From a virus (taxonomy: Duplodnaviria; Caudoviricetes): a stretch of 64,000 nt of DNA. The stretch covers positions 343 to 64,342 of the IMG/VR virus record IMGVR_UViG_3300033388_000803. One strand, 5' to 3'. Below the pieces are notes generated by a model. That model was given only the letters and a program-made list of their open reading frames with translations, searched no databases and was not told the DNA's origin. Shown here in pieces: positions 1,533 through 60,590 of this stretch (the first letter of the stretch is position 1; each line of letters starts with the position of its first letter). Both the position numbers and the translations under genes were made by a program.

Positions 1533-2315
1533 ATGGCATATCAAAAAATAGTAGTAAACACAGGCATGTCCGCAGCAGTTCTTGCTAGTGACACTAACCA
1601 TATACCTAATCTACCAAATGTATCTATAGTGACAGGTACTGGTGATCCCGTTGACAGTGGTACAACAACGGCTGCAAACACAAATACTTTAGTAGATACA
1701 GGAGCAAACTTTGTAGCAACAACAGCACCATTTCCAGTTGTGGCAGGAGATCTTGTTTTTAATACAACTAATACTGGAAACTCAACAGCTGTTTCTGCAA
1801 CAGCAACCTCAGTAGTAATGGGTGCCAACATATTTACTCAAGCAGCTGGTGGTGAAAACTATGTAATTTTAAGAGCAAACACTTTAATTGATACAAGTAG
1901 AGACTTCCAAGCTTTAGGCGTTCAGGGTGGAGACATAGTTTACAATACAGCAACAAATACTCAAGCGGTAATTCAGTTTGTAAATGGAAGCTTGTTATCT
2001 TTAGATACTGATATTTTTGGATCGTTAACATCTTATAATAATGCATATAAAATTTTCGTTGCAGGAGGTAGTAAAGGTGGTGCAACTGTAATGAAATCTG
2101 CTGATTGTTGCTTATTGTATGTAGGCACAGACACAGCTAATGATGCGATGGGTGACGCTACTCAATATGTAGATGTAAGAGTTTTAACTTGTGCAGACAA
2201 TGAGGTTATATTTAAAAACTTTAAAGTTGGAGAATATTTACCAGTTCAAATCAAACAACTTTTCGAAACAGGAACTTCAGTTTCTGCAAGAGAATCATGT
2301 CTAGCTATTTGGTAA
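1533..2315 (+). CDS. putative virion structural protein with two internal beta-rich repeats
   Basis: 260 aa; duplicated ANTL.DT...F....V..GD.V.NT module. Confidence 0.7.
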   Translation: MAYQKIVVNTGMSAAVLASDTNHIPNLPNVSIVTGTGDPVDSGTTTAANTNTLVDTGANFVATTAPFPVVAGDLVFNTTNTGNSTAVSATATSVVMGANIFTQAAGGENYVILRANTLIDTSRDFQALGVQGGDIVYNTATNTQAVIQFVNGSLLSLDTDIFGSLTSYNNAYKIFVAGGSKGGATVMKSADCCLLYVGTDTANDAMGDATQYVDVRVLTCADNEVIFKNFKVGEYLPVQIKQLFETGTSVSARESCLAIW

Positions 2316-2316
2316 T

Positions 2317-2583
2317 ATGACAGTTATTTCTGAAAACACAAGGTTTAGCTTAAGCCCTAAAAATTTTCTTACCATTCTTGTGTTAGTAGGAAGTATGGTA
2401 GGCATGTATTATTCCTTACAGGCTCAGATTGAAATAGCTAAAGAATTGCCTGAACCAAGTCAAACTCCTACAGAGCAAATGATAGAAATACAAAAAGAGT
2501 TGGTTTTTATTAAAACAGAAATGTTAGAAATGAAAGAAACTCTAAATAGGCTAGACGATAGAATTTATCAACTAAGAAAATAA
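2317..2583 (+). CDS. membrane-anchored coiled-coil protein (lysis-associated?)
   Basis: One TM segment plus C-terminal coiled coil, directly upstream of amidase. Confidence 0.6.
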   Translation: MTVISENTRFSLSPKNFLTILVLVGSMVGMYYSLQAQIEIAKELPEPSQTPTEQMIEIQKELVFIKTEMLEMKETLNRLDDRIYQLRK

Positions 2584-2586
2584 TGA

Positions 2587-3000
2587 ATGAGAGCAATAAA
2601 AAAAATTATTGTTCATTGTTCTGCTACTCCACGAAATAAAGATTTTTCAGCAGAAGATATAAGAGACTGGCATGTTAAAGGAAACGGCTGGGACGATATA
2701 GGATATCATTTTGTTGTAAGGCTAAATGGACAAATAGAATATGGCAGAATGGTTGACAAGTATGGTGCCCATGTTTCGGGACATAACTATGATAGTTTGG
2801 GAATATGTTATATCGGTGGTATGGATAAAGAAATGAAGTGTTGGGAAGACACCAGAACTGATCAACAAAAAGAATCTTTACTTTTACTTCTTAAAACATT
2901 AAAAAAATTTCACCCCGATGCAGTTGTTTATGGTCATAGAGATTTTTCAAGCAAAGAGTGTCCTAGTTTTGATGCAACAAAAGAATATAATGAATTATGA
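2587..3000 (+). CDS. N-acetylmuramoyl-L-alanine amidase (T7 lysozyme-like endolysin)
   Basis: IIVHCSAT, GWDDIGYH, GAHVSGHN, GICYIGG, GHRDF, K.CPSFD motifs. Confidence 0.95.
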   Translation: MRAIKKIIVHCSATPRNKDFSAEDIRDWHVKGNGWDDIGYHFVVRLNGQIEYGRMVDKYGAHVSGHNYDSLGICYIGGMDKEMKCWEDTRTDQQKESLLLLLKTLKKFHPDAVVYGHRDFSSKECPSFDATKEYNEL

Positions 3001-3401
3001 ATATATGGAGTAAGATATTTGGATCAGCAGGGTTGGAAGTGGCAGACAAGGTTAGTAATGTGGTTGATAGGTTTGTTCAAACTCCTGATGAAAAAATAGC
3101 GTTTAAAAAAGAAATGTTAGAAATATTTAATAACGCTGCTATTGATGAACAAAAGAATGTAACCGAACGCTGGAAAAGCGATATGTCATCAGATAACTAT
3201 CTGTCTAAAACAGTTAGACCAGCTGTTTTAATATTTTTGATTTTTAGTACAATCTTGCTTATTTTTATTGATTCAGGATTTATTACCTTTGTAGTTGACG
3301 ATGAGTGGAAGGATCTTTTAAAAGTTTTGCTAGTTACAGTAGTGGCTGCATACTTTGGAGGACGCTCATATGAAAAGGGAACTAAAATCAAAAATAAGTA
3401 A
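2997..3401 (+). CDS. holin (GTA 3TM-holin-like)
   Basis: RW.SDM.SD..LSK.VRP, two TM helices, YFGGRS.EK; follows amidase. Confidence 0.8.
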   Translation: MNIWSKIFGSAGLEVADKVSNVVDRFVQTPDEKIAFKKEMLEIFNNAAIDEQKNVTERWKSDMSSDNYLSKTVRPAVLIFLIFSTILLIFIDSGFITFVVDDEWKDLLKVLLVTVVAAYFGGRSYEKGTKIKNK

Positions 3402-4123
3402 TGGCAAAAATATCATCGTATCCAATACAGTCTGTAATAGTAGGAACTGATAAAGTTATAGGTAGTGATGCTATAAACGCCATGGCAACAAAGAATTTTA
3501 CTTTTGATGATATTGCTATATTTTTAAACACAAACAATAAAATAGAAAGTAACGCTTTAAGGTATCAATATCAAAACTGGAACACAGGAGATGTAAGAAG
3601 ATCGGGAACTATATCTTTTGCTAACTCAGGAGCAGGAACACCAGCCTTTTCTTCTTTAACAACTTTTATGTTAAGTAAGTTTATGTTAAAATCAAACATA
3701 GACATATCTTCTTATTACTCAGTGCCATTAATATCTTCAGTAGTTTTAATTTCACAAACAGATAATCCATCAAACTTTGGTGTATATGATTGGAATTCAG
3801 CAGTGCAAGATGGGGTAGAGACTGATTTTTTTGACATTGGAGTAACATTTAAAGCGGGTGCTGGTAACCTACAAAACGATAAAGATTATTTCATATCTTT
3901 GCTAACGTATGGCGGAGCAGTTTCTGGAGATAAAAACTATGTGTTTTCTCAGAATGTAGCTGCTAATCCTTGGGTAATAAATCATGGATTAAATAAGTAT
4001 CCGTCAGTATCTGTTGTTAACTCAGCGTTAGAAACAGTATACGGAGATGTAGAGTATGATAGTTTAAACCAAGTAACAATAACTTTTAACGGCCCACAAA
4101 CAGGAAAGGCCTTTTTTAACTAA
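3401..4123 (+). CDS. tail fibre adaptor/hub protein
   Basis: N-term MAKISSYP...DKVIG.D shared with 11047 fibre; C-term W.INHGLNKYPSVSVV domain. Confidence 0.7.
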   Translation: MAKISSYPIQSVIVGTDKVIGSDAINAMATKNFTFDDIAIFLNTNNKIESNALRYQYQNWNTGDVRRSGTISFANSGAGTPAFSSLTTFMLSKFMLKSNIDISSYYSVPLISSVVLISQTDNPSNFGVYDWNSAVQDGVETDFFDIGVTFKAGAGNLQNDKDYFISLLTYGGAVSGDKNYVFSQNVAANPWVINHGLNKYPSVSVVNSALETVYGDVEYDSLNQVTITFNGPQTGKAFFN

Positions 4124-4137
4124 CTAAAAAACAAAAC

Positions 4138-4530
4138 ATGAGAAAAATATTTTTAACATCAATATTAAGTTTATTTACAATTTTAGCTTCAGCACAATTT
4201 ATGGTAACTAGCACGCTTAGTTCACCAGCAGATGGAGAAGAAGTAAGTCTAGATAACTTAACAGATAACATAGGAGTAATGTATTCTATGGATAAAATAA
4301 GTGCAGGAATAATGATGGATGGAGATGATTATAATTTAGTAGCAAGATATACTTTTGGAGAACACTTGTTTGCATATGGATTAATGACTGAAGAAGAAGA
4401 AATTTCTTTAGGAGTGGGGTATGCATTAAATGTGTGGAACGAGTTATATATTGAGCCATCTTATCTATTAGATATGGAATCAGAAGATAGTGAAGGAGAA
4501 CTTAAATTAAGTTTAACTTATAAATTTTAA
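4138..4530 (+). CDS. small outer-membrane beta-barrel-like protein
   Basis: Sec signal peptide (…ASA-Q), alternating amphipathic strands, C-terminal YKF (BAM-type signal). Confidence 0.7.
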   Translation: MRKIFLTSILSLFTILASAQFMVTSTLSSPADGEEVSLDNLTDNIGVMYSMDKISAGIMMDGDDYNLVARYTFGEHLFAYGLMTEEEEISLGVGYALNVWNELYIEPSYLLDMESEDSEGELKLSLTYKF

Positions 4531-4550
4531 CAATATAAAACACAGATAAC

Positions 4551-7190
4551 ATGGCAATTAATTTTTTACAAAATGTCTCGCTCAATAATACAGAGCTACA
4601 AAACTTTAAAGTACAGAACGTAACTTCTGATCCAACCGTAACTGGAGAGGGTCAGTTAATATATAGATCAGACTCTAATGTTCTTAAATTTTATAATGGC
4701 TCTAATTGGATTACTTTAGATAGTAACGCAGGTACCGTAACTTCTGTTGGAGTATCTAGTAATTACTTAACTATTGGTAGTTCACCAATAACAAGTAGCG
4801 GAACAATATCAGTTAATATGCCAAACTCTGGCGTTACAGCTGCATCATATACTCACGCAAGTATTACTGTAAATGCACAGGGTATTGTAACAGCCGCATC
4901 AAATGGAACGGCTACATTAGGAGTAACATCATTCACTAATTCTAACGGAACATTTGTTTCTGCTGGAACTGCAAACTCTAGTGCTACAGGAGCAGTAACT
5001 ATGGGTACCATAGATTTATCAGCAACTGGTTCTCCAAGTAGTTCTACTTTCTTAAGAGGTGATAATGTATGGGCAGCGATTCCAGGGGGATATACTTCAT
5101 GGACACTTCAAGGTGATTCAGGATCAAATTTATCAGTTACAAATGGAGTGACTGTAGATATAGCTGGTGGTACTGGAATTTCTACTGCAACAACAGCAAC
5201 AGGAATGACTTTAACAAACACTGGTGTAACATCAGCTGTAGCAGGGTCAAACATATCTGTAAGTAGTGCAACAGGAGCGGTAACAATAGCGTATACTGGA
5301 GGAACAGGAACAATGAGTTCATGGAATTTGGTTGGGGACACAGGAAGTCAGTCTATAACAAATGGAAACAATGCTACTTTTATTGGAGGAACTGGTATTA
5401 CAACGGCAGCAAGTGCAACTGATGATTTAACAATTACTCTTGATGATACATCGGTTACTGCTGGTTCTTATACTTCGGCTAACTTTACGGTTGATGCACA
5501 AGGTAGAATAACTGCCGCATCTAATGGTGGTGCAGGAACAATGACATCATGGACTATTGGATCAACGTCAGGATCAAATCAAACTGTAAGTAATGGCGAG
5601 GTTGTAGACATAGTAGGTGGTACATATATAAGTGGAACTATTGGAGGAACAAGAACTGTTACTCTTTCTCACGACACTACTTCAAGAAGTGATACTACAA
5701 GTTCATCTTCACCAGGTTCAGCAGGAACATTTACAGCAGTTGATTCGGTTACTACAAATTCTACAGGTCACATTACAGCTCTTAATGTAAAGACTGTTAC
5801 AATGCCAACATCTCCTACTGTTTATGCAGGGTGGACTTTAGATGGCGATTCAGGATCAGCACAAACTATAGCATCTGGAAATACAGCAACATTTATTGGA
5901 GGGTCAGGTATAACAACTGCTGTTAGTGCGACAGATGATTTAACTATAACTAACTCAGGAGTTCTAAGTAATGTAGCTGGAACAGGTATTGGAGTAAGTG
6001 GGGCAACAGGAAACGTAACAATATCTAACACAGGGGTAACAGCGGTTTCAGCTGGAACAGGAATTAGTGTTAGTGGCTCAACAGGATCAGTAACAATAAC
6101 AAATACAGTTACTAATACAGATGCAAATTATGCATTAAGTGTAGGTGCTGTATCATCAAATGAATCTACATTATCATTAGTTGGTTCAAGTGGTGGTTCA
6201 ACAACAACAGCTAAATTCTCAGGAACTACTTCTGAGATAGAAATAACAACTCCATCAACTGGTAATGGTGGTGATATTACTATTGGATTACCAAGTAATG
6301 TTACTGTAACCACAAGTTTAAATGTAGGGACTGGAGGAATAGAAACAACAGGAGCATTAAATGTAACAGGAACAGGTCAATCAGCTTTTGCTGGTCAAGT
6401 AACTGTACCAACAACACCTTCAGCTTCAACAGATGCAGCTTCGAAAGCTTATGTATTAGCACAAGTTGGAGGAGTAGGGGCATTTCAGGGAGGATATAAT
6501 GCAAGTACAAACTCTCCTGCATTATCTGGAGCTGCCAACGTAGCTTTAAATAATGGTGACTTCTTTGTAGTTACAGTAGCAGGTTCAGCATTCTTTAGTA
6601 CGCAATTAGAACCAGGAGATTTATTATTTGCAAATGCAGATATTGCAGCAAGTTCATCTCCAGCTAAGTCTGACTATACGGTTGTTATAGCTGACGAAAA
6701 CATTGCAGGTGCTGGAGCAACTGATGGTGCAACAGCAAAAGGGGTTGCAGGATTTGATTCAGCAAACTTTGGTGTAACAGCAAATGGATTTGTAACAATA
6801 GATAACTCTGGTGTAACAGCAGCATCATATGGTGGTGTAACTAAATCTTTAAATGCAACAGTTGACGCTAAAGGATTTGTTACTGCAATGTCTGAAAATA
6901 CTATTGCAATACCAGCTTCACAAATAACAGACTTTTGTCAAGCAGTTACAACTTGTATTGGAAACAATCATAATGCAGTTGCAAATATTGGTAACAACTC
7001 AGCAACAACATACACTGTAACTCATAATTTAGGAACAAGAGATGTTATGGTGCAAGTTTATCGTAACGAATCTCCTTTTGATACTATTTTTGTGGGTGTT
7101 GAAAGAACGTCTACATCTGCCGTAACTCTTAGTACAGTAGAAGCTTTAGATACAAATGAGGCAAGAGTATTGATTACTGAGATACTTTAA
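4551..7190 (+). CDS. tail fibre protein (Gly/Thr-rich repeats)
   Basis: Repeated W.L.GD(S/T)G...GG.GI.T and VTAGSYT..TVDAQGRITAASNG fibre motifs; C-term VTHNLGTRDV.VQVY. Confidence 0.85.
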   Translation: MAINFLQNVSLNNTELQNFKVQNVTSDPTVTGEGQLIYRSDSNVLKFYNGSNWITLDSNAGTVTSVGVSSNYLTIGSSPITSSGTISVNMPNSGVTAASYTHASITVNAQGIVTAASNGTATLGVTSFTNSNGTFVSAGTANSSATGAVTMGTIDLSATGSPSSSTFLRGDNVWAAIPGGYTSWTLQGDSGSNLSVTNGVTVDIAGGTGISTATTATGMTLTNTGVTSAVAGSNISVSSATGAVTIAYTGGTGTMSSWNLVGDTGSQSITNGNNATFIGGTGITTAASATDDLTITLDDTSVTAGSYTSANFTVDAQGRITAASNGGAGTMTSWTIGSTSGSNQTVSNGEVVDIVGGTYISGTIGGTRTVTLSHDTTSRSDTTSSSSPGSAGTFTAVDSVTTNSTGHITALNVKTVTMPTSPTVYAGWTLDGDSGSAQTIASGNTATFIGGSGITTAVSATDDLTITNSGVLSNVAGTGIGVSGATGNVTISNTGVTAVSAGTGISVSGSTGSVTITNTVTNTDANYALSVGAVSSNESTLSLVGSSGGSTTTAKFSGTTSEIEITTPSTGNGGDITIGLPSNVTVTTSLNVGTGGIETTGALNVTGTGQSAFAGQVTVPTTPSASTDAASKAYVLAQVGGVGAFQGGYNASTNSPALSGAANVALNNGDFFVVTVAGSAFFSTQLEPGDLLFANADIAASSSPAKSDYTVVIADENIAGAGATDGATAKGVAGFDSANFGVTANGFVTIDNSGVTAASYGGVTKSLNATVDAKGFVTAMSENTIAIPASQITDFCQAVTTCIGNNHNAVANIGNNSATTYTVTHNLGTRDVMVQVYRNESPFDTIFVGVERTSTSAVTLSTVEALDTNEARVLITEIL

Positions 7191-7200
7191 TCTAAATCAC

Positions 7201-7252
7201 ATATACGAGTTTAAATATTAGTTAAACACTTTTATTTAAATTCGTATATTTG
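7201..7252 (+). promoter_or_regulatory. 17-bp-arm inverted repeat overlapping TATATTTG -7 promoter box
   Basis: ATATACGAGTTTAAATA (7201-7217) / TATTTAAATTCGTATAT (7233-7249); TATATTTG 7245-7252. Confidence 0.65.
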
Positions 7253-7272
7253 TAAAAATCTAATTTCTCAAT

Positions 7273-9807
7273 ATGCCTGTATTTTTTCAAGACAATACTT
7301 ACGATGATAATACCAAAGTAATTTTTGGTCAAACTACTGGTGCTACTACTTTTCCACATATAAGATGGTTCAATGACACAAATGCCGATTATTGGCATTT
7401 TGATAATTCGTCAAACGGCTGTATTTGGGAAAACGGAAATATGCTTTGGATGCAAAACGCAGGCCTTAACTCTGGTTTTGGAATGCAGATAGAATCAGGA
7501 ATAGTTAAATTATTTAACTCTGAAGGTTTAGGTAATGGGGGTACAATTAGATTAACGACAACAACTTCTGGAGTTGATATTAATGGTAAGTTTGTTACAT
7601 CTGCCGTTTCCGACTGTGCAGGTTTAAATATGACTGATGACTTAGACATGAATGCTAATGATTTTATAGATTCAAATAATTCAACAGGATCAGCAAATCA
7701 AGTGTTAATATCAAAAGGAACGGGAAATGGAACAGAATGGATAACGCTTCCTGGAAGCTCAGGAGCTGGAACCGTTACTAGCGTTGCGGCATTAACATTA
7801 GGAACTTCAGGAACTGACTTATCTAGTACAGTAACAAACTCAACTACTACTCCTGTAATAACCTTAAATGTTCCTACAGCATCAGCAGCTAATAGGGGTG
7901 CTTTGTCATCAACAGACTGGGCAACATTTAACGGTAAAATGCAGTCTTTTACTATACAAGGTGACTCAGGGAGTTCTACAGTTACAGGCTTACAAACAGT
8001 AGATATTGCAGGAGGAACTGGTATTACTACAGCGGAAAGCTCAAGAACCGTAACAATCACAAATTCTAAGCCTTTTGATGGAATAACTGTTTCAGGAACT
8101 ACAGGAGGTGGTACAGTAATATCAAATAACGGATTTATAGCAATAGCCGCTGGTTCAGGTATAACAACAACAAATAGTAACGGAACAATAACAATAGCTG
8201 CAACGGGTGGAGGTGGTTCAATGTCAAACTGGATTTTGCAAGGAGATTCTGGAACTAATCTAACGGTTACCAATGGTAACACAATAGATATTGCTGGAGG
8301 AACAAATATTTCAACTGCCACTACAGCGACTGGAATAACCATAAATAATGGTATAACAAACAATAATCAATTAACAAACGGAGCAGGGTATACAACAAAT
8401 ACAGGAACAGTTACTGCTGTAAATGGTACTGCACCAGTAGTTTCGTCAGGAGGTACGGCCCCTACTATTTCTATGGCAGCGGCAACTACTTCGGTTGACG
8501 GTTATTTAACAGCAGGAAACTTTACAACTTTCAATAATAAAATGACTAATTTCACTATTGAGGCTGACACTGGTGGTGCGGCAACAATAGATAATGGTGA
8601 TGCTATAGATATAATTGGAGGTACAAATATAACAACACATCGTTCAGGAAATAATATAACTATAAATTCAAGTGCATCAGGTACAGTTGTTAGTGTTGGC
8701 TTAGCTGTTCCATCGGCCTTTACAGTTACGGGGACACCTATAACAACAACAGGGACATTTACAATAGCAGGTGCAGGAACTTCATCTCAATATGTAAGAG
8801 GAGACGGAGGTTTAGCTACCTTCCCAACTATACCGCCAGCAGGAGTAACTTCAGTAGCTACTGGAAGTGGACTAACTGGTGGAACAATAACAAGTACAGG
8901 AACTGTATCAGTTGATTATGGTTCATCAGGATTAATTAATGATGCACCAGGAGGTACAGGGTCAATAAGTGAGAATGATTTTATATTAATAGGTAAAGAC
9001 GAGTCTGGTTCTGGAGAAACAAGATCTTATGAGGTGCAAGAGCTTAGTTCAGTATTAGGAGGAGTAACTTCTGTAGGTATTACTGCGGGTACAGGAATTA
9101 GTGTTTCTGGCTCACCGATAACTTCTTCAGGAAGTATTACTGTAACAAATACTATTACAAACAACAATCAATTAACAAACGGAGCAGGATATACAACTAA
9201 TACTGGTACTGTAACTACAGTTGGTGCAGCCAACCCAACTTCTGGTGGTGCGGCAGGATTTCCACTTTTTATTACCAGTACAGCTTCAACAACACCAGTA
9301 GTAAACTTAAACCAAGGACAGATAACAGGAACTAAAGTATCTACAGCCGCAGGTGGAGGAGTTACAAGTGGAACTTGGAATGCTAATACTCAATTAGATA
9401 AAACAGATAATACAGATAATTCGTATCAAGGAGAAATAGTATATTTTGGTACTGCCGCAAGTTCTCCTTTAGCTCAAGGAAAGCTATATGTTTATACTGC
9501 AACGGATGGGGAATGGGCAGCTGCAAAAGCAGATGCTGTAGGAACATCCGCAGGGCTATTAGCCATTGCATTAGGAACAACTGTTTCGGCAGGAATGTTT
9601 ACAAGAGGTATGTATACTAATAGTTACACAACAACAGGAAGTTCTAATGGAAGTATTTTGTATATTGATAGTGTAAATGCGGGTTCTATGACACATGAAC
9701 CACCATCAGGCACAGGTAAATTTGTAAGAATTGTAGGTACACAGTTAGACTCATCTAATGGTCAAATATTTTTTCATCCAGACAATACATTTATAGAGCT
9801 ATCATAA
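7273..9807 (+). CDS. tail fibre protein
   Basis: Same GDSG/GGTGIT repeats; duplicated ITNNNQLTNGAGYTTNTGTVT. Confidence 0.85.
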   Translation: MPVFFQDNTYDDNTKVIFGQTTGATTFPHIRWFNDTNADYWHFDNSSNGCIWENGNMLWMQNAGLNSGFGMQIESGIVKLFNSEGLGNGGTIRLTTTTSGVDINGKFVTSAVSDCAGLNMTDDLDMNANDFIDSNNSTGSANQVLISKGTGNGTEWITLPGSSGAGTVTSVAALTLGTSGTDLSSTVTNSTTTPVITLNVPTASAANRGALSSTDWATFNGKMQSFTIQGDSGSSTVTGLQTVDIAGGTGITTAESSRTVTITNSKPFDGITVSGTTGGGTVISNNGFIAIAAGSGITTTNSNGTITIAATGGGGSMSNWILQGDSGTNLTVTNGNTIDIAGGTNISTATTATGITINNGITNNNQLTNGAGYTTNTGTVTAVNGTAPVVSSGGTAPTISMAAATTSVDGYLTAGNFTTFNNKMTNFTIEADTGGAATIDNGDAIDIIGGTNITTHRSGNNITINSSASGTVVSVGLAVPSAFTVTGTPITTTGTFTIAGAGTSSQYVRGDGGLATFPTIPPAGVTSVATGSGLTGGTITSTGTVSVDYGSSGLINDAPGGTGSISENDFILIGKDESGSGETRSYEVQELSSVLGGVTSVGITAGTGISVSGSPITSSGSITVTNTITNNNQLTNGAGYTTNTGTVTTVGAANPTSGGAAGFPLFITSTASTTPVVNLNQGQITGTKVSTAAGGGVTSGTWNANTQLDKTDNTDNSYQGEIVYFGTAASSPLAQGKLYVYTATDGEWAAAKADAVGTSAGLLAIALGTTVSAGMFTRGMYTNSYTTTGSSNGSILYIDSVNAGSMTHEPPSGTGKFVRIVGTQLDSSNGQIFFHPDNTFIELS

Positions 9808-26770: not shown

Positions 26771-29700
26771 ATGGATATTAACACTAATTTTATAGCAGGT
26801 AAAATGAATAAAAGCGTTGATGAACGCTTAATACCTAAAGGACAATACATAGACGCACTTAATGTTAGACTAGGATCAACAGAAACAACCGAAATAGGTG
26901 CAGTTGAAAATTCAAAAGGAAATACTATATTAACTGACATTGGGTATCAGGGAGTAACTCTTTCAAGCAATGCAACCTGTATAGGTGCTTTTGAAGATGG
27001 GGTTAATGAAAATATATATTGGTTTGTTCACGACCCTACTTCGGCCTTATCAGCTTCTGGTAAGATAGACATGATATTGTCTTATAATGTTTCTGGCCAA
27101 TCTACAACATATCATGTTGTTAGTGAAACTGTTTTAAATTTTAATCCTCTTTATTTAATTACTGGTATTGATTTAATTGAAGATTTATTGTTTTTTACAG
27201 ACGATATAAATCCACCTAGAAAAATAAATATTAATAGAAATTATCCTGAGCCAAATGTTTCAGGAGATCAAATAACTGAAGAAGAGTTAAATGTAATTGT
27301 GAAACCACCAGGGTTTAGTTCATACACAAATAGTTTAGGAGTTGTAGAAGAAGAATTACCTGCACCAACACTTGTTTTATCTAATGTCGTTGGTGATGAA
27401 AATTATATAAAAGATAAATTTATATGTTTTGCATATAGATATCAATATAGAGAAAATGAATATAGTGCTACTTCTTTGTTTACCACACCATCTTTTGAGC
27501 CAGGTCTATTTAAATACGATAAGGCAAATCAAAATAATGCTGGAATGGAAAACGTTTATAATAGCGTTGACATTACTTTTAATACAGGTGGCTCACTTGT
27601 TATAGCTATAGAGTTGCTATTTAAAGAATCGGCTACCAACACTATAAATGTAATTGAAAGGTTTGATAAGTCTGATTTAGGCTGGTCTGACAACGACCAA
27701 CAAACATTTCGTTTTACAAATTCTAAAATATATACTGTTTTAGGAAGCGATGAGTTATTGAGACTGTATGATAATGTTCCTAGATTTGCTAAGTCTCAAA
27801 CTATAATGGGCAACAGATTAATTTATGGACACTATATAGATCAATACGATATAGAAACAGCAGACGGACAACAAATACCTATAGACTTTAGAACAACGGG
27901 TTCTTCTGTAGGAATTGAAAGTGAAGTAGTATCTTTTGATTTATTAGGAATAGGTGATGCTAATCAAATAGACCCCGCAGTGGGAACATCTTTTTTTGTA
28001 CCGTTTTCTTATGGTAGATGGAATTTACCTAGCTCTAACATACCATTACCTATACTAAAAAATGCTGAGTTTAATGTAAAGGTAAAGATAACATCAACGG
28101 CTGCATATGCTCCTGGAGCACCTGGATATTTAGATTTAGGAGGAGATACAGCAGATCCTTTATTTCCTACTGGATTTAAAACTAACACTTTATCTAGTCA
28201 ACCCGAAATTTCTGTACGAATAATTGCTAGAAATAACTACGCTACATATATAGACTTTACTAATTCATTAGAGTTTCAAGAGGCTTTTGGAGTTGGAGTG
28301 CCTGGAACACCTGGTTCAACTATAACTCCCATTACCCCTGGAGCATCTTATGGGTTTTCTTTGTCTGATCAATTTTATGCATTAATACAACCCCCTACAA
28401 CTCCAACTTATGCTGTGGATTATGTTTTTAAAACAGCTGGTAAATGGGATCCAGGATCAGGAGCTCCTATACCAGCTCAAGAAGGGTATAAAATGGAATC
28501 GTTTTCTACAGGAGTAAGATTACAACAACCGTCAGTTCAATATCAGTATGATGACGGGGTGGGTAATATAGTTAATGTTTACGAATATTTTGCTTTTTCT
28601 GTTACATCAATTACTGTTGCTGGGCCTCCTGCTATTGGAACGTCTACCGACTGTACTATTTCTTTTTCAAATATATCTAACTCTGCCAGTTTACATAGTA
28701 ATAGAAATTTTGAAACAGGAATTATGTATATGGATGATTATGGAAGATCTACTACCGTTCTTGTTTCTCCTAATAATACTGTGTTTTTTCCAGCAGCCGA
28801 CTCTGTAAGTATAAATACTATTATTGCTACTGTAAATAATAAGCCTCCTTTTTGGGCTAGTCGTTATAAATTTTTTGTGAAACCATCTTTAGGTGCTTAT
28901 AATATAATTTATAGTGACGCAATATTTACCGATCAATTTGATCAAGGATTAGCATGGGTAAGGCTTGAAGGAGATGCTACCTCTATAGTTAATAAGAACG
29001 ATATATTAACTGTAAAAATACAGTCAGATGGACAAGTAGTTCCTAGGCTTGTTACTACTACAGTATTAGAAGTTGAAGCAAAAAATAGAGGAGGTACAGG
29101 TACAGGACAAGATAACAATTTACCTGCTGGAGCACCTGCTGGTTTATATATGTTAATACGCCCACAAGGATTTCGTGCATCAACCTCCGCTAATGCACTT
29201 ATAGATAACGGATATAAAAGTGTAGACGCAACTTCAGGTTTTGGAACTGTAGAGTATCCATGTTTTACTACAGATAGTGCAGGTAATCCATTAGTATACA
29301 ATTTACCACAGGGGTCTGAGGTATCACTGACTTTTAGAACATGGAGAGGATATGCGTGGTTTGCTAAATGCGATATGAATTATGAAACAGTTCCGTTTAA
29401 GTTTGAAGTAACTGCCTCTAGCACTGCACAAAATCTTAAAGACTTTTTTGATCAAGAAGGAATAAACCCTAACAACTTTATGCAAAACACAGAGTGTGTT
29501 GACGATATGAAGGCAGTTTATTATCCAACACAATATGCTATTGGACAAGGGCCATCAGACAGCTCTAGCCTTATACCAGAATTACAGTTTTGGTTTACTT
29601 CTGACAATTATTCTTCATCTTCAAGTGAATTATTTTTAAACGTAAGATCAATATTTCCAGTGGCTACTGGTTTTCTTAGAACCGACATAAGACCTGTAAA

Positions 29701-56187: not shown

Positions 56188-56679
56188 TTATTTTAAATTA
56201 GTAATTAGTCTAAATTGATAATCGTAATCATCTACAAGAGAACAATAATATTTATCTCCATTCTCTTCTGTATCAGAATACTCTTCTAAATCTTCTCCGT
56301 ACTCTTTGTCTAGCCATTCTATTTGCTCTTCATATTGTTTCTTTGTGAGCATTGCACAATCATTTACATTGCATAGAATCATAAACGCATAAGCATCTTT
56401 TATTTCCCATACTTGATAGCTACCACAATTATCGTCATAGGCATCCCAAAAGTATCCGTCTCCATCTACTCCCTTGTCTATTTGTGCATACTCATCAGAG
56501 TATCTTGTTACATCTTTTGCGTCTCCATTAGCATTGCTCAATGCTCTTTTATATGCCCATTTGAATGCTGATTTTTTGTATGCAAATTGTTTTGTATCTA
56601 TTCCATTTTCTGAAGAATATCCATCTCCGTTCCATGTATCGATAACTATATATTTTTTAATGTTGTTTTTTAGTCTCAT
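56188..56679 (-). CDS. acidic hypothetical early protein
   Basis: 163 aa, IDTWNGDGYS motif. Confidence 0.75.
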   Translation of the reverse strand: MRLKNNIKKYIVIDTWNGDGYSSENGIDTKQFAYKKSAFKWAYKRALSNANGDAKDVTRYSDEYAQIDKGVDGDGYFWDAYDDNCGSYQVWEIKDAYAFMILCNVNDCAMLTKKQYEEQIEWLDKEYGEDLEEYSDTEENGDKYYCSLVDDYDYQFRLITNLK

Positions 56680-56918
56680 TATTGTAATTGGTTTTCGTTA
56701 ATATAATCTACTATATCATCCCATATTCCCTCTAACTTCTCTGTCACATCGTCATTGTTTAGCATCAGTTTTGCTATCTCAATGTTGTGGTATCTAGGTG
56801 TACTTCTGTCCTCTGCTTCAGGGCAATCTGTCTCCCAATAAGTCACTCCAAGAACATTGTTCTTGCTTAACTCATAACAAGTATATTTAGTTTGTGTGTA
56901 GCTGTTTGTTGTAATCAT
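56679..56918 (-). CDS. hypothetical early protein
   Basis: Likely start MITTNSY (56918); the upstream extension in the ORF track reads through the ribozyme. Confidence 0.7.
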   Translation of the reverse strand: MITTNSYTQTKYTCYELSKNNVLGVTYWETDCPEAEDRSTPRYHNIEIAKLMLNNDDVTEKLEGIWDDIVDYINENQLQ

Positions 56919-56944
56919 GTTATTTAATTTAATTGGTATCTTAT

Positions 56945-56998
56945 GATACTGACGAGCATTTCTGCTCGTTTCGGACATTGAGTCCTCATCAGAGTATC
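56945..56998 (-). ncRNA. hammerhead ribozyme, type I
   Basis: GAUACU-CUGAUGA-GGAC-ucaau-GUCC-GAA-ACGAGCA-gaaa-UGCUCGU-C^AGUAUC: complete catalytic core and three perfect stems. Confidence 0.95.
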
Positions 56999-57267
56999 TA
57001 GCTATTGTAATCCTCAAGCTGAGTCTTGAATCCCTCTAAGCATTCTAATAGTCCATGCTTGTCGTACCCCATTTTCTCTAGCCCAAAGTATGCTTTAACA
57101 CCTTTGAGAGTGTAATGTCTGTGTGGCTTTAATCCCCTTATAAACATCTTTAGTTCTGCGATAGATAATACTAGATTGTACCATCCTTTATTACCATCTC
57201 TACCATTGATGTTCATCGGCTTGTCAAAGTCCTTACCGAATTGTGTATCTCTTACTGTGTATTCCAT
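56998..57267 (-). CDS. hypothetical early protein
   Basis: 89 aa; stop codon overlaps first base of hammerhead. Confidence 0.75.
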   Translation of the reverse strand: MEYTVRDTQFGKDFDKPMNINGRDGNKGWYNLVLSIAELKMFIRGLKPHRHYTLKGVKAYFGLEKMGYDKHGLLECLEGFKTQLEDYNS

Positions 57268-57963: not shown

Positions 57964-57996
57964 CAAATATATATAAATTAATTATTATAAAACAAA
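57964..57996 (-). promoter_or_regulatory. early promoter TTTG-N21-TATATTTG
   Basis: Full Bacteroidota -33/-7 consensus on minus strand. Confidence 0.8.
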
Positions 57997-58015
57997 TAAA
58001 TAGACATCTAATTTT

Positions 58016-58028
58016 TAATGTATTGATT
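58016..58028 (-). promoter_or_regulatory. IHF-like binding site
   Basis: Minus strand AATCAA-TACA-TTA = WATCAANNNNTTR. Confidence 0.45.
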
Positions 58029-58227
58029 GTCAGTCAGTTACACAGGTGTGTTTCACTGCTTTTTGTTTGCTATTTGCACACTTCGATGGGGTATAAAGAC
58101 GCAGTTCTTTGTCCCTTAAAACAATGATCATTGTATTTTATGCTCTCATATCTAGTGGAATGTGGGGTAATGTAGGGGAAAATCCCCCTGAATCTGCACA
58201 ACTATGCAGTTTGAAATGGGAACGATG

Positions 58228-58262
58228 CTGGACGCAGCCAGTACGACACTGGACGCAGCCAG
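58228..58262. repeat. 14-bp direct repeat CTGGACGCAGCCAG x2 (21-bp period)
   Basis: 58228-58241 and 58249-58262; related TGCGTCAGCCA near 58292. Confidence 0.85.
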
Positions 58263-58425
58263 ATGAAAACAAAAAGCCAAAAAAATCCGAGTGCGTCAGC
58301 CATATCTAGTACCCCCCCTAGTGAAAAAAATCGGTTTTAATTTTAAAAAAAATGCTGTGTAGTGTAGTATTATCCTCAACCTCTAAATGTCTAACAAAAA
58401 TTTATTATCTTTACAAAAAAAAGTC

Positions 58426-58940: not shown

Positions 58941-58948
58941 TATATTTG
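58941..58948 (+). promoter_or_regulatory. -7 element TATATTTG of groEL operon
   Basis: TAnnTTTG 25 nt upstream of ATG. Confidence 0.7.
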
Positions 58949-58973: not shown

Positions 58974-60590
58974 ATGAAATCTCAGGGATACATACCAAAG
59001 GACTTGTCGTTTGACGATGAAGCTCGCCACAAATTAATTCAAGGAATAACTAAAATTTCAAAAGCCGTAAAGAGCACATTAGGGCCTTTAGGTAAGACTG
59101 TGCTTATAGAATCTGCCGATCATTTAAAAGGGATTACTATAACTAAAGACGGAGTTACTGTAGCACAGTCAGTATTCTTAGATGATCCAATAGAAAACCT
59201 TGCAATACAAATGATGAAGGATGCAGCTAGTCGAACGGCTAATACAGCTGGTGACGGAACAACTACAGCTATTGTATTGACAGAAGCTATTGTAATGGCA
59301 GGACAAAAGTATTTAGAAAAAGGATGCAACATAACTGAAGTTATAAAATACATTAATGACTATACTAAAGAAATTGTAAAAAGTTTAACTAAGAACTCAA
59401 AGAAAGTAACTCCAGCAAGACTATTAGACGTAGCTTGTATATCAGCTAATAATGACAAGGCGATTGGTAAGATAATTGCTGACGCTTATAATAAGGTGGG
59501 TGTAAACGGTATTGTTACTGTGGAGAACTCAATGACATCAGAAACATATGCTGAGGTTACAAACGGTATAAAGATTGCCAGAGGATACACATCTAATATG
59601 TTTATCAATAATCAAAAGAAAGATGAGTGTGTATTAGAGGGGGTTAAGATATTAGTTTGTGATGCTGAGATAAGTAGTGTGTTACAAATTGAGAATATAC
59701 TAAAACCTATTATACAAAACCAAGACAAGCTTTTAATTATAGGCCCATGTCATGGTAATGTTATTAATACCTTAGCAGCTAATGTTGTTCGTAATGGACT
59801 AAAGTTCTGTAATATTATACCACCAAACTTTGGATATAAGTCAACTGAGCTAATGAGTGATATTGCTTTTGCTGTTAATGCAAAGTTCTTTAGCGAGAAG
59901 ACTGGTGATGATTTAAGTTTAATCAGAATGGAGGACTTAGGTTATGCTGATAAAATAGTATCTAGTCTAGAGACCACTATTATATTTAAGGAAGATGAGA
60001 AACCCGAAGAAACTAACAAACGTATATTTCAACTAAAGGTACAGCAAGAAAACACCACGATAAAGCATGAGCGTGAGTTTATTAATGAGCGTATAGCTAG
60101 TTTAGCTGGAGCAATAGGATGTATATTTGTAGGAGGTAACTCTGATGTAGAGCAAAAAGAATTGTATGACAGGGTTGATGACTCAGTGTGTGCAGTAAGA
60201 TCAGCTTTAGATGAAGGTATAATTGCTGGTGGAGGACTAGCACTACTAAGAGAGTCGATTAGTTTATTAAATAAATCTAAAGTAGACAGTAAGGAAAATG
60301 AAAACTTAGCCAGGCTAATACTGTCAACTGCCTTACAAGCTCCAATAAATCAAATATGCAATAATGCTGAGATAGAAATTGAATGGATTATGGAGCACAT
60401 ATATAATAATAAACATAACTTTGGGTTTGATGTAAAGAACGAAGAGTATGGTGATATGTTTAAGATGGGAATTATAGATCCTTTAAAGGTAACCAAGAAT
60501 GCCTTGCTAAATGCAGTAAGTGTAGCTACAACTATATTAAGTACCAATGCTATTATAACCCATAAAAGACAAAGTCAAAGTGATGATTAA
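58974..60590 (+). CDS. groEL: chaperonin GroEL (phage type)
   Basis: TLGP.G, ITKDGVTVA, AGDGTTTA, ISAN, GI.AGGG, GIIDP.KV; no GGM tail. Confidence 0.97.
   Translation: MKSQGYIPKDLSFDDEARHKLIQGITKISKAVKSTLGPLGKTVLIESADHLKGITITKDGVTVAQSVFLDDPIENLAIQMMKDAASRTANTAGDGTTTAIVLTEAIVMAGQKYLEKGCNITEVIKYINDYTKEIVKSLTKNSKKVTPARLLDVACISANNDKAIGKIIADAYNKVGVNGIVTVENSMTSETYAEVTNGIKIARGYTSNMFINNQKKDECVLEGVKILVCDAEISSVLQIENILKPIIQNQDKLLIIGPCHGNVINTLAANVVRNGLKFCNIIPPNFGYKSTELMSDIAFAVNAKFFSEKTGDDLSLIRMEDLGYADKIVSSLETTIIFKEDEKPEETNKRIFQLKVQQENTTIKHEREFINERIASLAGAIGCIFVGGNSDVEQKELYDRVDDSVCAVRSALDEGIIAGGGLALLRESISLLNKSKVDSKENENLARLILSTALQAPINQICNNAEIEIEWIMEHIYNNKHNFGFDVKNEEYGDMFKMGIIDPLKVTKNALLNAVSVATTILSTNAIITHKRQSQSDD

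Follow-up and report, generated by a model that had tools for sequence, protein, structure and literature searches.

The minus strand of a marine phage genome carries, between two small open reading frames (ORFs), a type I hammerhead with an intact core, whose fold is supported by comparison with a family of related elements in other phages. We consider it likely, with a probability of roughly 75%, that this is a genuine hammerhead within a polycistronic minus-strand transcript, which would cut itself between positions 56951 and 56950 and thereby probably insulate the neighbouring cistrons from each other. The virus record comprises 64,342 bases and is rated 100% complete; the window, i.e. the whole stretch of DNA that was analysed, covers 64,000 nucleotides of it. 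A direct read of the minus strand from 56998 to 56945 gives a complete type I hammerhead, which agrees letter for letter with the one noticed in the first-pass annotation. The parts of the element were read from the sequence and, for the stems, also from the predicted fold (alignments A1 and A2 and model R2 are described below):

56944..56999, minus strand: full element with flanking adenosines A56999 and A56944, an A.A mismatch that is invariant in the family and closes the 6-bp stem I; 66.1 bits with R2, E 3.9e-17
56993..56998, minus strand: stem I, 5' strand GAUACU; double changes at each of the 6 pairs of this stem within the family
56986..56992, minus strand: catalytic core C3 to A9, CUGAUGA; columns invariant in A1 except N7
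56973..56985, minus strand: stem II, 4 bp, with the closing pair G10.1-C11.1 and the 5-nt loop UCAAU; 3 of 4 pairs covary
56970..56972, minus strand: core G12 A13 A14; invariant in A1
56952..56969, minus strand: stem III, 7 bp, A15.1-U16.1 at its base, GAAA loop; 6 of 7 pairs covary in A2
56950..56951, minus strand: predicted scissile bond between C17 (56951) and A1.1 (56950), GUC triplet, from hammerhead numbering applied to the sequence
56945..56950, minus strand: stem I, 3' strand AGUAUC; predicted new 5' end of the downstream RNA

The topology is that of type I, with stem I open and stems II and III capped by loops. C3 U4 G5 A6 N7 G8 A9, G12 A13 A14, the A15.1-U16.1 pair and an H17 that is not G are all present, so that no core position deviates. 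The first-pass annotation had claimed exactly this, namely an intact type I hammerhead with all conserved core nucleotides, a GUC triplet and a predicted cut at 56951/56950, and both the sequence read and the hammerhead numbering lead to the same result. The element had also been described as starting inside the stop codon of the upstream gene, and indeed G56998 doubles as the third base of its TAG (57000-56998). The hammerhead is both the minimum-energy and the centroid structure of a 64-nt RNA (-20.2 kcal/mol, z -3.5), and only 1 of 200 shuffled sequences folds as well. A structure scanner, which looks for the core together with the three stems, recovered this type I hammerhead and no other from the two strands of the 64-kb window; in 600 Markov-random 64-kb strands it found any relaxed match in one strand and a match with stems of 6/4/7 bp in none. 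A second or degenerate copy was also considered and rejected: the genome contains one copy, and the best remaining scores are 11.3 bits (R1) and 13.5 bits (R2).

The fold was then compared across the family. In A1, a gap-free alignment of 22 elements including that of the window, 14 of the 17 base pairs are changed on both sides and the unpaired core columns are invariant except N7; since the members were picked by the scanner, which demands pairing, the percentage paired in this alignment is partly circular. The model R1, which was built from A1, gave 185 matches at E<=0.001 in 100 viral loci (791,784 bases, with some loci overlapping on the same contig). The 150 best of these 185 matches, leaving out the window and its closest relative (L002), were fitted to the model to obtain A2, which has 136 distinct rows, 99.6% paired cells and double changes in 15 of the 17 pairs. 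The covariation score of A2 is 0.784, compared to 0.154 for shuffled alignments, of which 0 of 500 reach 0.784, and to at most 0.097 for slid partners. The model R2, built from A2 and hence without the window and L002, recovers the window element with 66.1 bits (E 3.9e-17), while the runner-up scores 13.5 bits.

An independent pattern, consisting of the core and the ends of stem II only, matched at least 119 stretches of viral contigs. Among the matches listed, 122 of the 139 with enough flank also possess stem III, H17 and stem I, compared to 70 of 2780 for stems I and III in a control with shuffled flanks; incomplete matches amount to 18 of 143 among those listed and are mostly located in coding sequence. 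The same pattern occurs at 120 loci in cellular genome contigs, but a complete hammerhead is present in only 9 of them, and the remaining loci fit chance matches according to a rough estimate from the size of the collection. On comparative sequence evidence, we conclude that the window element is a real type I hammerhead and that its subfamily, as sampled, is essentially phage-borne.

The Infernal search against Rfam hammerhead models, which the first-pass annotation had put forward as a check, gave a negative result at every threshold tried. No hammerhead was reported by cmscan for the whole window at Rfam gathering thresholds, and no hammerhead or other ribozyme family for 251 nt and 74 nt around the element at E<=10 or for six related loci at E<=1; RF00163 and RF02276 had no match in the whole genome record, and the window element does not reach the RF00163 gathering score of 34 bits. 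Weak Rfam matches to snoRNA and sRNA families were taken for chance. When the Rfam library was applied to ten related loci, a single element passed (36.2 bits vs the threshold of 34), whereas R1 detects 51 elements in nine of these ten loci. Since RF00163 passes one element as opposed to at least 51 clear relatives, the Rfam negative reflects a narrow type I seed and not a defect of the element. The window element shares the three-way junction, the core, G10.1-C11.1, the open stem I and the capped stems II and III with RF00163 (clan CL00010), but remains below the threshold and below E<=10, and it differs from the consensus in stems II and III: in the printed RF00163 consensus, stem II is GUCC/GGAC and stem III has 2 bp, compared to GGAC/GUCC and 7 bp in the window element. 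According to passages in PMC13725137, helix III is long in bacterial and phage type I hammerheads and short in eukaryotic repeats, and the 2-bp stem III of the consensus fits the latter.

The missing Rfam match and the fact that cleavage is predicted from sequence would both be compatible with a chance match or with a decayed, inactive relic. However, none of the 600 random strands contains a match as good, the core is free of deviations, the score with R2 is 66.1 bits, and the element of the closest relative differs by a single loop base, while the flanking proteins are only 72-85% identical. We therefore regard chance or decay as highly improbable.

The family members are uniform in their dimensions. 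Stem I has exactly 6 bp in 190 of 199 members, the stem II element 13 nt in 186 of 199, and position 17 is occupied by C in 169 and by A in 30 of the 199. Among the 154 members with standard lengths, the base before stem I and the base after it are A without exception (154/154 each), and since the scanner demands only a non-pair at this flank, the A.A mismatch represents real conservation. Loop II follows the consensus U-N-A-R-U (U in 154, A in 140 and the final U in 146 of 154), and the window belongs to the 19 of 154 members that carry the loop UCAAU. A tertiary contact between stem I and loop II is needed for fast hammerhead cleavage at physiological Mg2+. The A.A flank is a plausible docking site for loop II, and the candidate contact partners in the window are A56999, A56944 and UCAAU. 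Elsewhere in the family, stem III insertions reach up to about 90 nt. Two small contigs binned into one metagenome-assembled genome (MAG) carry arrays of nine (L180, 534-4571) and six hammerheads (L204, 432-2516), which fall into two sub-architectures, one with a 6-bp stem I, A..A flanks and a 4-bp stem II, the other with a 7-8-bp stem I, mostly T..T (or G..A) flanks, a 5-bp stem II and a 3-nt loop.

Regarding the genomic context, plus-strand structural genes including terminase and portal occupy 1.5-43.5 kb and are followed by minus-strand replication and small genes at 43.7-58 kb, with a GroEL-like gene beyond. The nearest named phages, as determined by the primase protein, infect Flavobacteriia. 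In the minus-strand cluster, three small ORFs precede the hammerhead, which is located about 1 kb downstream of a divergent intergenic region, and the neighbouring ORFs are all encoded on the minus strand, i.e. on the same strand as the hammerhead:

56998..57267, minus strand: upstream ORF of 89 aa, no known family, stop codon overlapping the element; from the ORF list and profile searches, homologues found
56679..56918, minus strand: downstream ORF of 79 aa, no known family, start codon ATG at 56918; from the ORF list, profile searches and homologues
56919..56950, minus strand: A/U-rich leader of 32 nt, which the predicted cut would leave before the next start codon; from the sequence
57964..57996, minus strand: putative Bacteroidota-type promoter (TTTG, about 21 nt, TATATTTG), from which the small genes on this strand might be transcribed; weakly supported, by a motif match at 57971-57964

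The site is located between two ORFs, as had been stated in the first-pass annotation; that these are early genes, as also stated there, can be judged from their position only. The ORF list contains a TTG-started frame of 112 aa (57017-56679), which overruns the hammerhead. Homologues of the downstream protein in related phages (82% identical in L006, 72-75% in L007 and L008) start at the ATG equivalent to 56918, which identifies the TTG extension as spurious and confirms the earlier suspicion that it hides the element. The flanking proteins matched no family above threshold in PHROG and Pfam. A HEPN-like match on a 62-aa ORF (16.9 bits) was below the cut-off of 27.1 and was ignored.

Transcription of the cluster may start at the putative promoter. 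The arrangement TTTG, ~21 nt, TATATTTG is what we take to be the Bacteroidota-type (-7) promoter motif; it is not enriched in the window (105 occurrences vs 99.8 expected), and the putative promoter lies within an AT-rich block that is conserved in two relatives (L006 and L002). Sigma-70-like sites are no commoner than in shuffled sequence (15 vs 18.2), and no terminator-like sites were found on the minus strand from 58800 to 55000. The region 57970-58400, about 400 nt of non-coding sequence between the divergent clusters, is conserved at the DNA level far above the neighbouring genes among the window, L006 and L002. It contains a run of seven G between CACTAG and TACTAG, a 12-nt direct repeat in two copies and a G5/C4 hairpin, and the short ORFs called within it are probably spurious. 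This block may serve as an origin or in regulation, or it may encode an unknown RNA; the Rfam search returned nothing for it. On its far side, a full-length GroEL-like chaperonin gene (58974-60590, plus strand; phrog_5725, E 5.4e-128) is preceded by a TATATTTG motif at 58941-58948.

The position between a stop and a start codon is a property of the family. In 156 of 174 deduplicated members, the predicted cut is followed within 45 nt by the ATG of an ORF of at least 40 aa, compared to 186 of 870 random positions, and in 167 of the 174 the upstream ORF ends at or near the element, with a median offset of +1 from the end of the stop codon to the first hammerhead base. The leader has a median length of 25 nt (interquartile range 21-29), compared to 32 nt in the window. 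Members are always located on the gene strand, and in loci with several copies these are all on one strand (37/37). The ORFs behind the elements are small (median 86.5 aa) and mostly orphan, 131 of 150 matching no PHROG family; a named function was assigned to only two of the 150 (DNA methyltransferase and anti-restriction protein), and structural proteins are not among them. Overall, the comparisons show an intact core and fold that are under selection and are sited between cistrons on the coding strand.

Related viral contigs were found by searching with the two flanking proteins, and five related genomes contain 1, 2, 1, 2 and 2 copies. In L002, the closest relative, the element is located at the same junction and shows the loop GCAA in place of GAAA. 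In L006, a hammerhead precedes the same downstream gene behind a different upstream gene; its stem II covaries, and this orthologous element (1344-1439) has stem III enlarged by an insertion of 40 nt, which leaves the base of the stem intact. A second hammerhead with different stems I and III follows 0.6 kb further on. L007 has only this second one, and its homologue of the downstream gene has no hammerhead in front, from which it follows that the element is dispensable for that gene. No hammerhead was found in L003-L005, which hold more distant homologues of the upstream gene. Another contig (L051) contains 14 model matches within 6.3 kb (2292-8607) on one strand, each between a stop codon and a start codon led by a Shine-Dalgarno sequence, and most of these copies have the same stem I sequence.

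BLAST of the 2-kb region and of the 71-nt element against GenBank phages gave no match. Cultured Flavobacterium phages of the Elemovirus group (L254, L258 and L257), whose host is Flavobacterium sp. BAL314, carry an element of the family at one site. In one of the three sequenced isolates, vB_FspP_elemoE_6-9C (L257), it is intact (53.4 bits); in the other two, elemoF_6-3D and elemoE_10-3D (L254 and L258; 42 bits each), two substitutions break 2 of the 4 stem II pairs. In MT497078.1 an annotated 35-aa "hypothetical protein" (27080-27187, plus strand; L254 781-888) lies exactly over the minus-strand hammerhead; this CDS is an annotation artefact like the spurious ORF of the window.

As judged from sequence and position, the most likely role of the element is the co-transcriptional cutting of an early polycistronic mRNA. 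A polycistronic minus-strand transcript would carry the hammerhead within the tight cluster of small genes, and once the last base of the element (56945) has cleared the polymerase, the three-way junction could form and the RNA would cut itself between C56951 and A56950 by internal transesterification. Hammerhead cleavage 3' of C17 generates a 2',3'-cyclic phosphate on the upstream product and a 5'-hydroxyl on the downstream product. Due to the type I topology, the ribozyme would stay on the upstream piece and only a six-base scar on the downstream piece. The upstream fragment with the 89-aa ORF and the preceding ORFs would accordingly end in the whole ribozyme, a structured 3' end with a cyclic phosphate, and the downstream fragment with the 79-aa ORF and the later ORFs would begin with a 5'-hydroxyl and the 32-nt leader. 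RNases that depend on the 5' end act poorly on a 5'-hydroxyl, and a structured 3' end is protected from exonucleases. The benefit may be that the stability and translation of the neighbouring cistrons are uncoupled, i.e. that the element acts as a natural insulator. With its single copy in this genome, the operon is not chopped into single genes. A circular or trans-ligated RNA was rejected, since it would require two compatible copies and the genome has one.

Past the element, the predicted fold is joined by a second structure, which has the following location:

56936..56949, minus strand: alternative hairpin GUAUC-AUAA-GAUAC, which competes with stem I in nearest-neighbour folding; 56949-56945 pairs with 56940-56936

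The 16 nt past the element hold a copy of the stem I 5' strand, which can pair with the stem I 3' strand, and the free 3' product is predicted to fold into this hairpin at -3.9 kcal/mol. For transcripts with only 0-6 nt beyond the element, the hammerhead is predicted as the optimal structure, and P(stem I) amounts to 0.76-0.92 for 0-40 nt of upstream context. With at least 16 downstream nt added, P(stem I) drops to 0.09-0.41 over the same range of upstream context, and together with at least 20 nt upstream the competitor hairpin is favoured by 0.5-2.1 kcal/mol, a nearest-neighbour estimate that does not count tertiary contacts. In these folding models, the hairpin agrees with a brief phase in which cutting is kinetically possible, after which the snap-back would prevent re-ligation and cap the newly formed 5' end; it agrees equally well with a device that limits cutting. 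If the first applies, the downstream stem I copy would pair with the released 5' end specifically in the clade of the window, so that the cut becomes irreversible and the end is capped. Synthetic insulators such as RiboJ are based on a type III satellite hammerhead, engineered to remove upstream context, which is followed by a hairpin. The window element would likewise remove upstream context and provide a hairpin and a defined short leader before the ribosome-binding region, but unlike in RiboJ its hairpin reuses the stem I 3' strand.

If the hairpin limits cutting, the element could be a regulated or timed switch, in which the competing hairpin and ribosomes terminating at the overlapping stop codon restrict cleavage and set the ratio of joined to separated mRNA. 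The sharp drop of P(stem I) once 16 downstream nt exist speaks for such a switch, as do an upstream segment that, in a 151-nt context, is able to base-pair to the 5' strand of stem I as well as to a portion of the core, the overlap with the stop codon that recurs as the median offset in the family, and the conservation of the competitor hairpin across the clade of the window. However, the energy differences are small and leave out tertiary stabilisation, no ligand-binding or sensor domain is evident, and the hairpin had to be rejected as a general feature of the family, as it is present in only 10 of 172 members (81 of 3440 in shuffled controls), which represent about five lineages. Overall, we consider a switch to be improbable, albeit less so than a chance origin.

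The hairpin sequence is part of a larger conserved unit. The block composed of the flanking A, the hammerhead and the 16-nt tail is sharply bounded and invariant in five contexts with unrelated flanks, apart from a covarying stem III; at least three unrelated genes were found after it and four unrelated genes before it. This would be expected if the hammerhead and its fixed tail were a portable cassette at gene boundaries, used as a joint for homologous recombination that shuffles small accessory genes, with cleavage being secondary or the ribozyme being a hitch-hiker. In line with this, hammerheads bound gene insertions and deletions between relatives, as L006 and L007 have an extra gene of 103/120 aa and then the second hammerhead where the window has none, and the genes that follow the elements are short and for the most part have no PHROG family. 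Moreover, stem I is identical in 45% of copy pairs within genomes compared to 7.7% between genomes, and the variable part of stem III in 8.9% compared to 1.2%. The sharing of stem I within genomes may be due to recent spread, gene conversion, interchangeable RNA ends or a constraint of the stop codon (…TAA) in the 5' strand. A recombination joint, however, needs no catalytic core, and in the family the unpaired core is invariant while the stems vary with compensation, which is the signature of selection on RNA fold and catalysis. The joint is the highest-rated rival of RNA cutting but still an unlikely one as the main role.

Recombination and RNA cutting are mutually compatible. One could tentatively combine them into a portable cistron-boundary cassette with three jobs, which ends the upstream reading frame, cuts the RNA such that the ribozyme stays upstream and a short 5'-hydroxyl leader downstream (with the snap-back lock in the clade), and serves as recombination joint for small orphan early genes; we find this combination somewhat more plausible than the joint by itself, though on balance doubtful. 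If it holds true, the near-identity of stem I within a genome would reflect selection for interchangeable joints or, more boldly, RNA ends that are able to re-pair with one another.

In two studies, contigs assembled from RNA libraries extend across the element (X2, 56908-57156; X3, 56656-57127). These contigs do not show the strand and the libraries possibly contain DNA, so that they fit uncleaved RNA or contaminating DNA. In another run (X1), one contig ends at 56977 and another begins at 56995 directly after adapter letters, i.e. at a fragment end; this break lies inside the element but off the predicted cut and was seen in one study only. The contig-wide depths in this run are 10.8 and 66.5, and contig depth cannot rank regions. 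A contig from a library whose kind is not on record (X11) runs through the site.

Returning to RNA cutting as the preferred role, the closest precedents are the hammerheads described by Perreault et al. 2011 (PMC3088659), of which, according to passages of that paper, many flank prophage genes. There, processing of long phage transcripts was proposed, cleavage was observed in vitro for three clustered prophage arrangements and in vivo for one, and spliced or circular products were sought without success. Like these, the window element is located in phage DNA, intergenic, on the gene strand and beside small and varied genes, and the proposed role, i.e. the generation of gene-length mRNAs, is the same. 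An anti-restriction gene behind a hammerhead also recurs, with ardA among the cases reported there and one of the 150 downstream ORFs in the family of the window. In contrast to the clusters in these passages, the genome studied here has a single copy, while other phage contigs contain up to 14 in 6.3 kb. A further difference from the hammerheads in these passages is that the subfamily consists of type I elements throughout, with stem I fixed at 6 bp, the A.A flank and the U-N-A-R-U loop.

The same source, in the part relevant here, describes HHphage of the haloviruses HF1/HF2. This hammerhead is part of an early polycistronic transcript, as the window element would be, and precedes a start codon by 13 nt, with a mapped 5' end near the cut. 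It differs in that it belongs to an archaeal virus, has a variant core architecture and is placed ahead of the first ORF and not between ORFs. Among RNA mycoviruses (PMC13725137, as excerpted), type I hammerheads are likewise located in untranslated or intergenic regions shortly before ORFs, e.g. at a distance of 7 nt from the start codon, where the cut creates a subgenomic RNA. These viruses, however, have RNA genomes and eukaryotic hosts, and their hammerheads are proposed to aid cap-independent translation and are said to be without the usual loop-loop contacts.

In the first-pass annotation, phage hammerheads had been called known but of largely unresolved role, which agrees with the respective statements in PMC3088659 and in a 2019 review (PMC6765202), where their purpose is still given as undefined. 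A 2026 paper (PMC13725137) treats, in the section concerned, DNA-phage hammerheads as already described, and a limited full-text literature search found no later study of the function of intercistronic hammerheads in phages. Phage hammerheads of this kind have been known since 2011, and the window element adds a member to them. What is added beyond this is a well-defined phage subfamily that is largely missed by Rfam, the clade-specific snap-back hairpin, and carriers among cultured Flavobacterium phages. As most of the subfamily escapes the Rfam type I model, such elements are overlooked by routine annotation and spurious ORFs are called across them. The window offers a clear example of a single copy within a complete phage genome of 64 kb, and it comes with comparative handles, namely the strict stop-to-start position, relatives with and without the element at the same junction, the clade-specific snap-back, and intact and weakened versions in cultured phages. 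The latter, the Elemovirus isolates, form a natural pair of a weak and a strong element, through which the function would become accessible to experiment.
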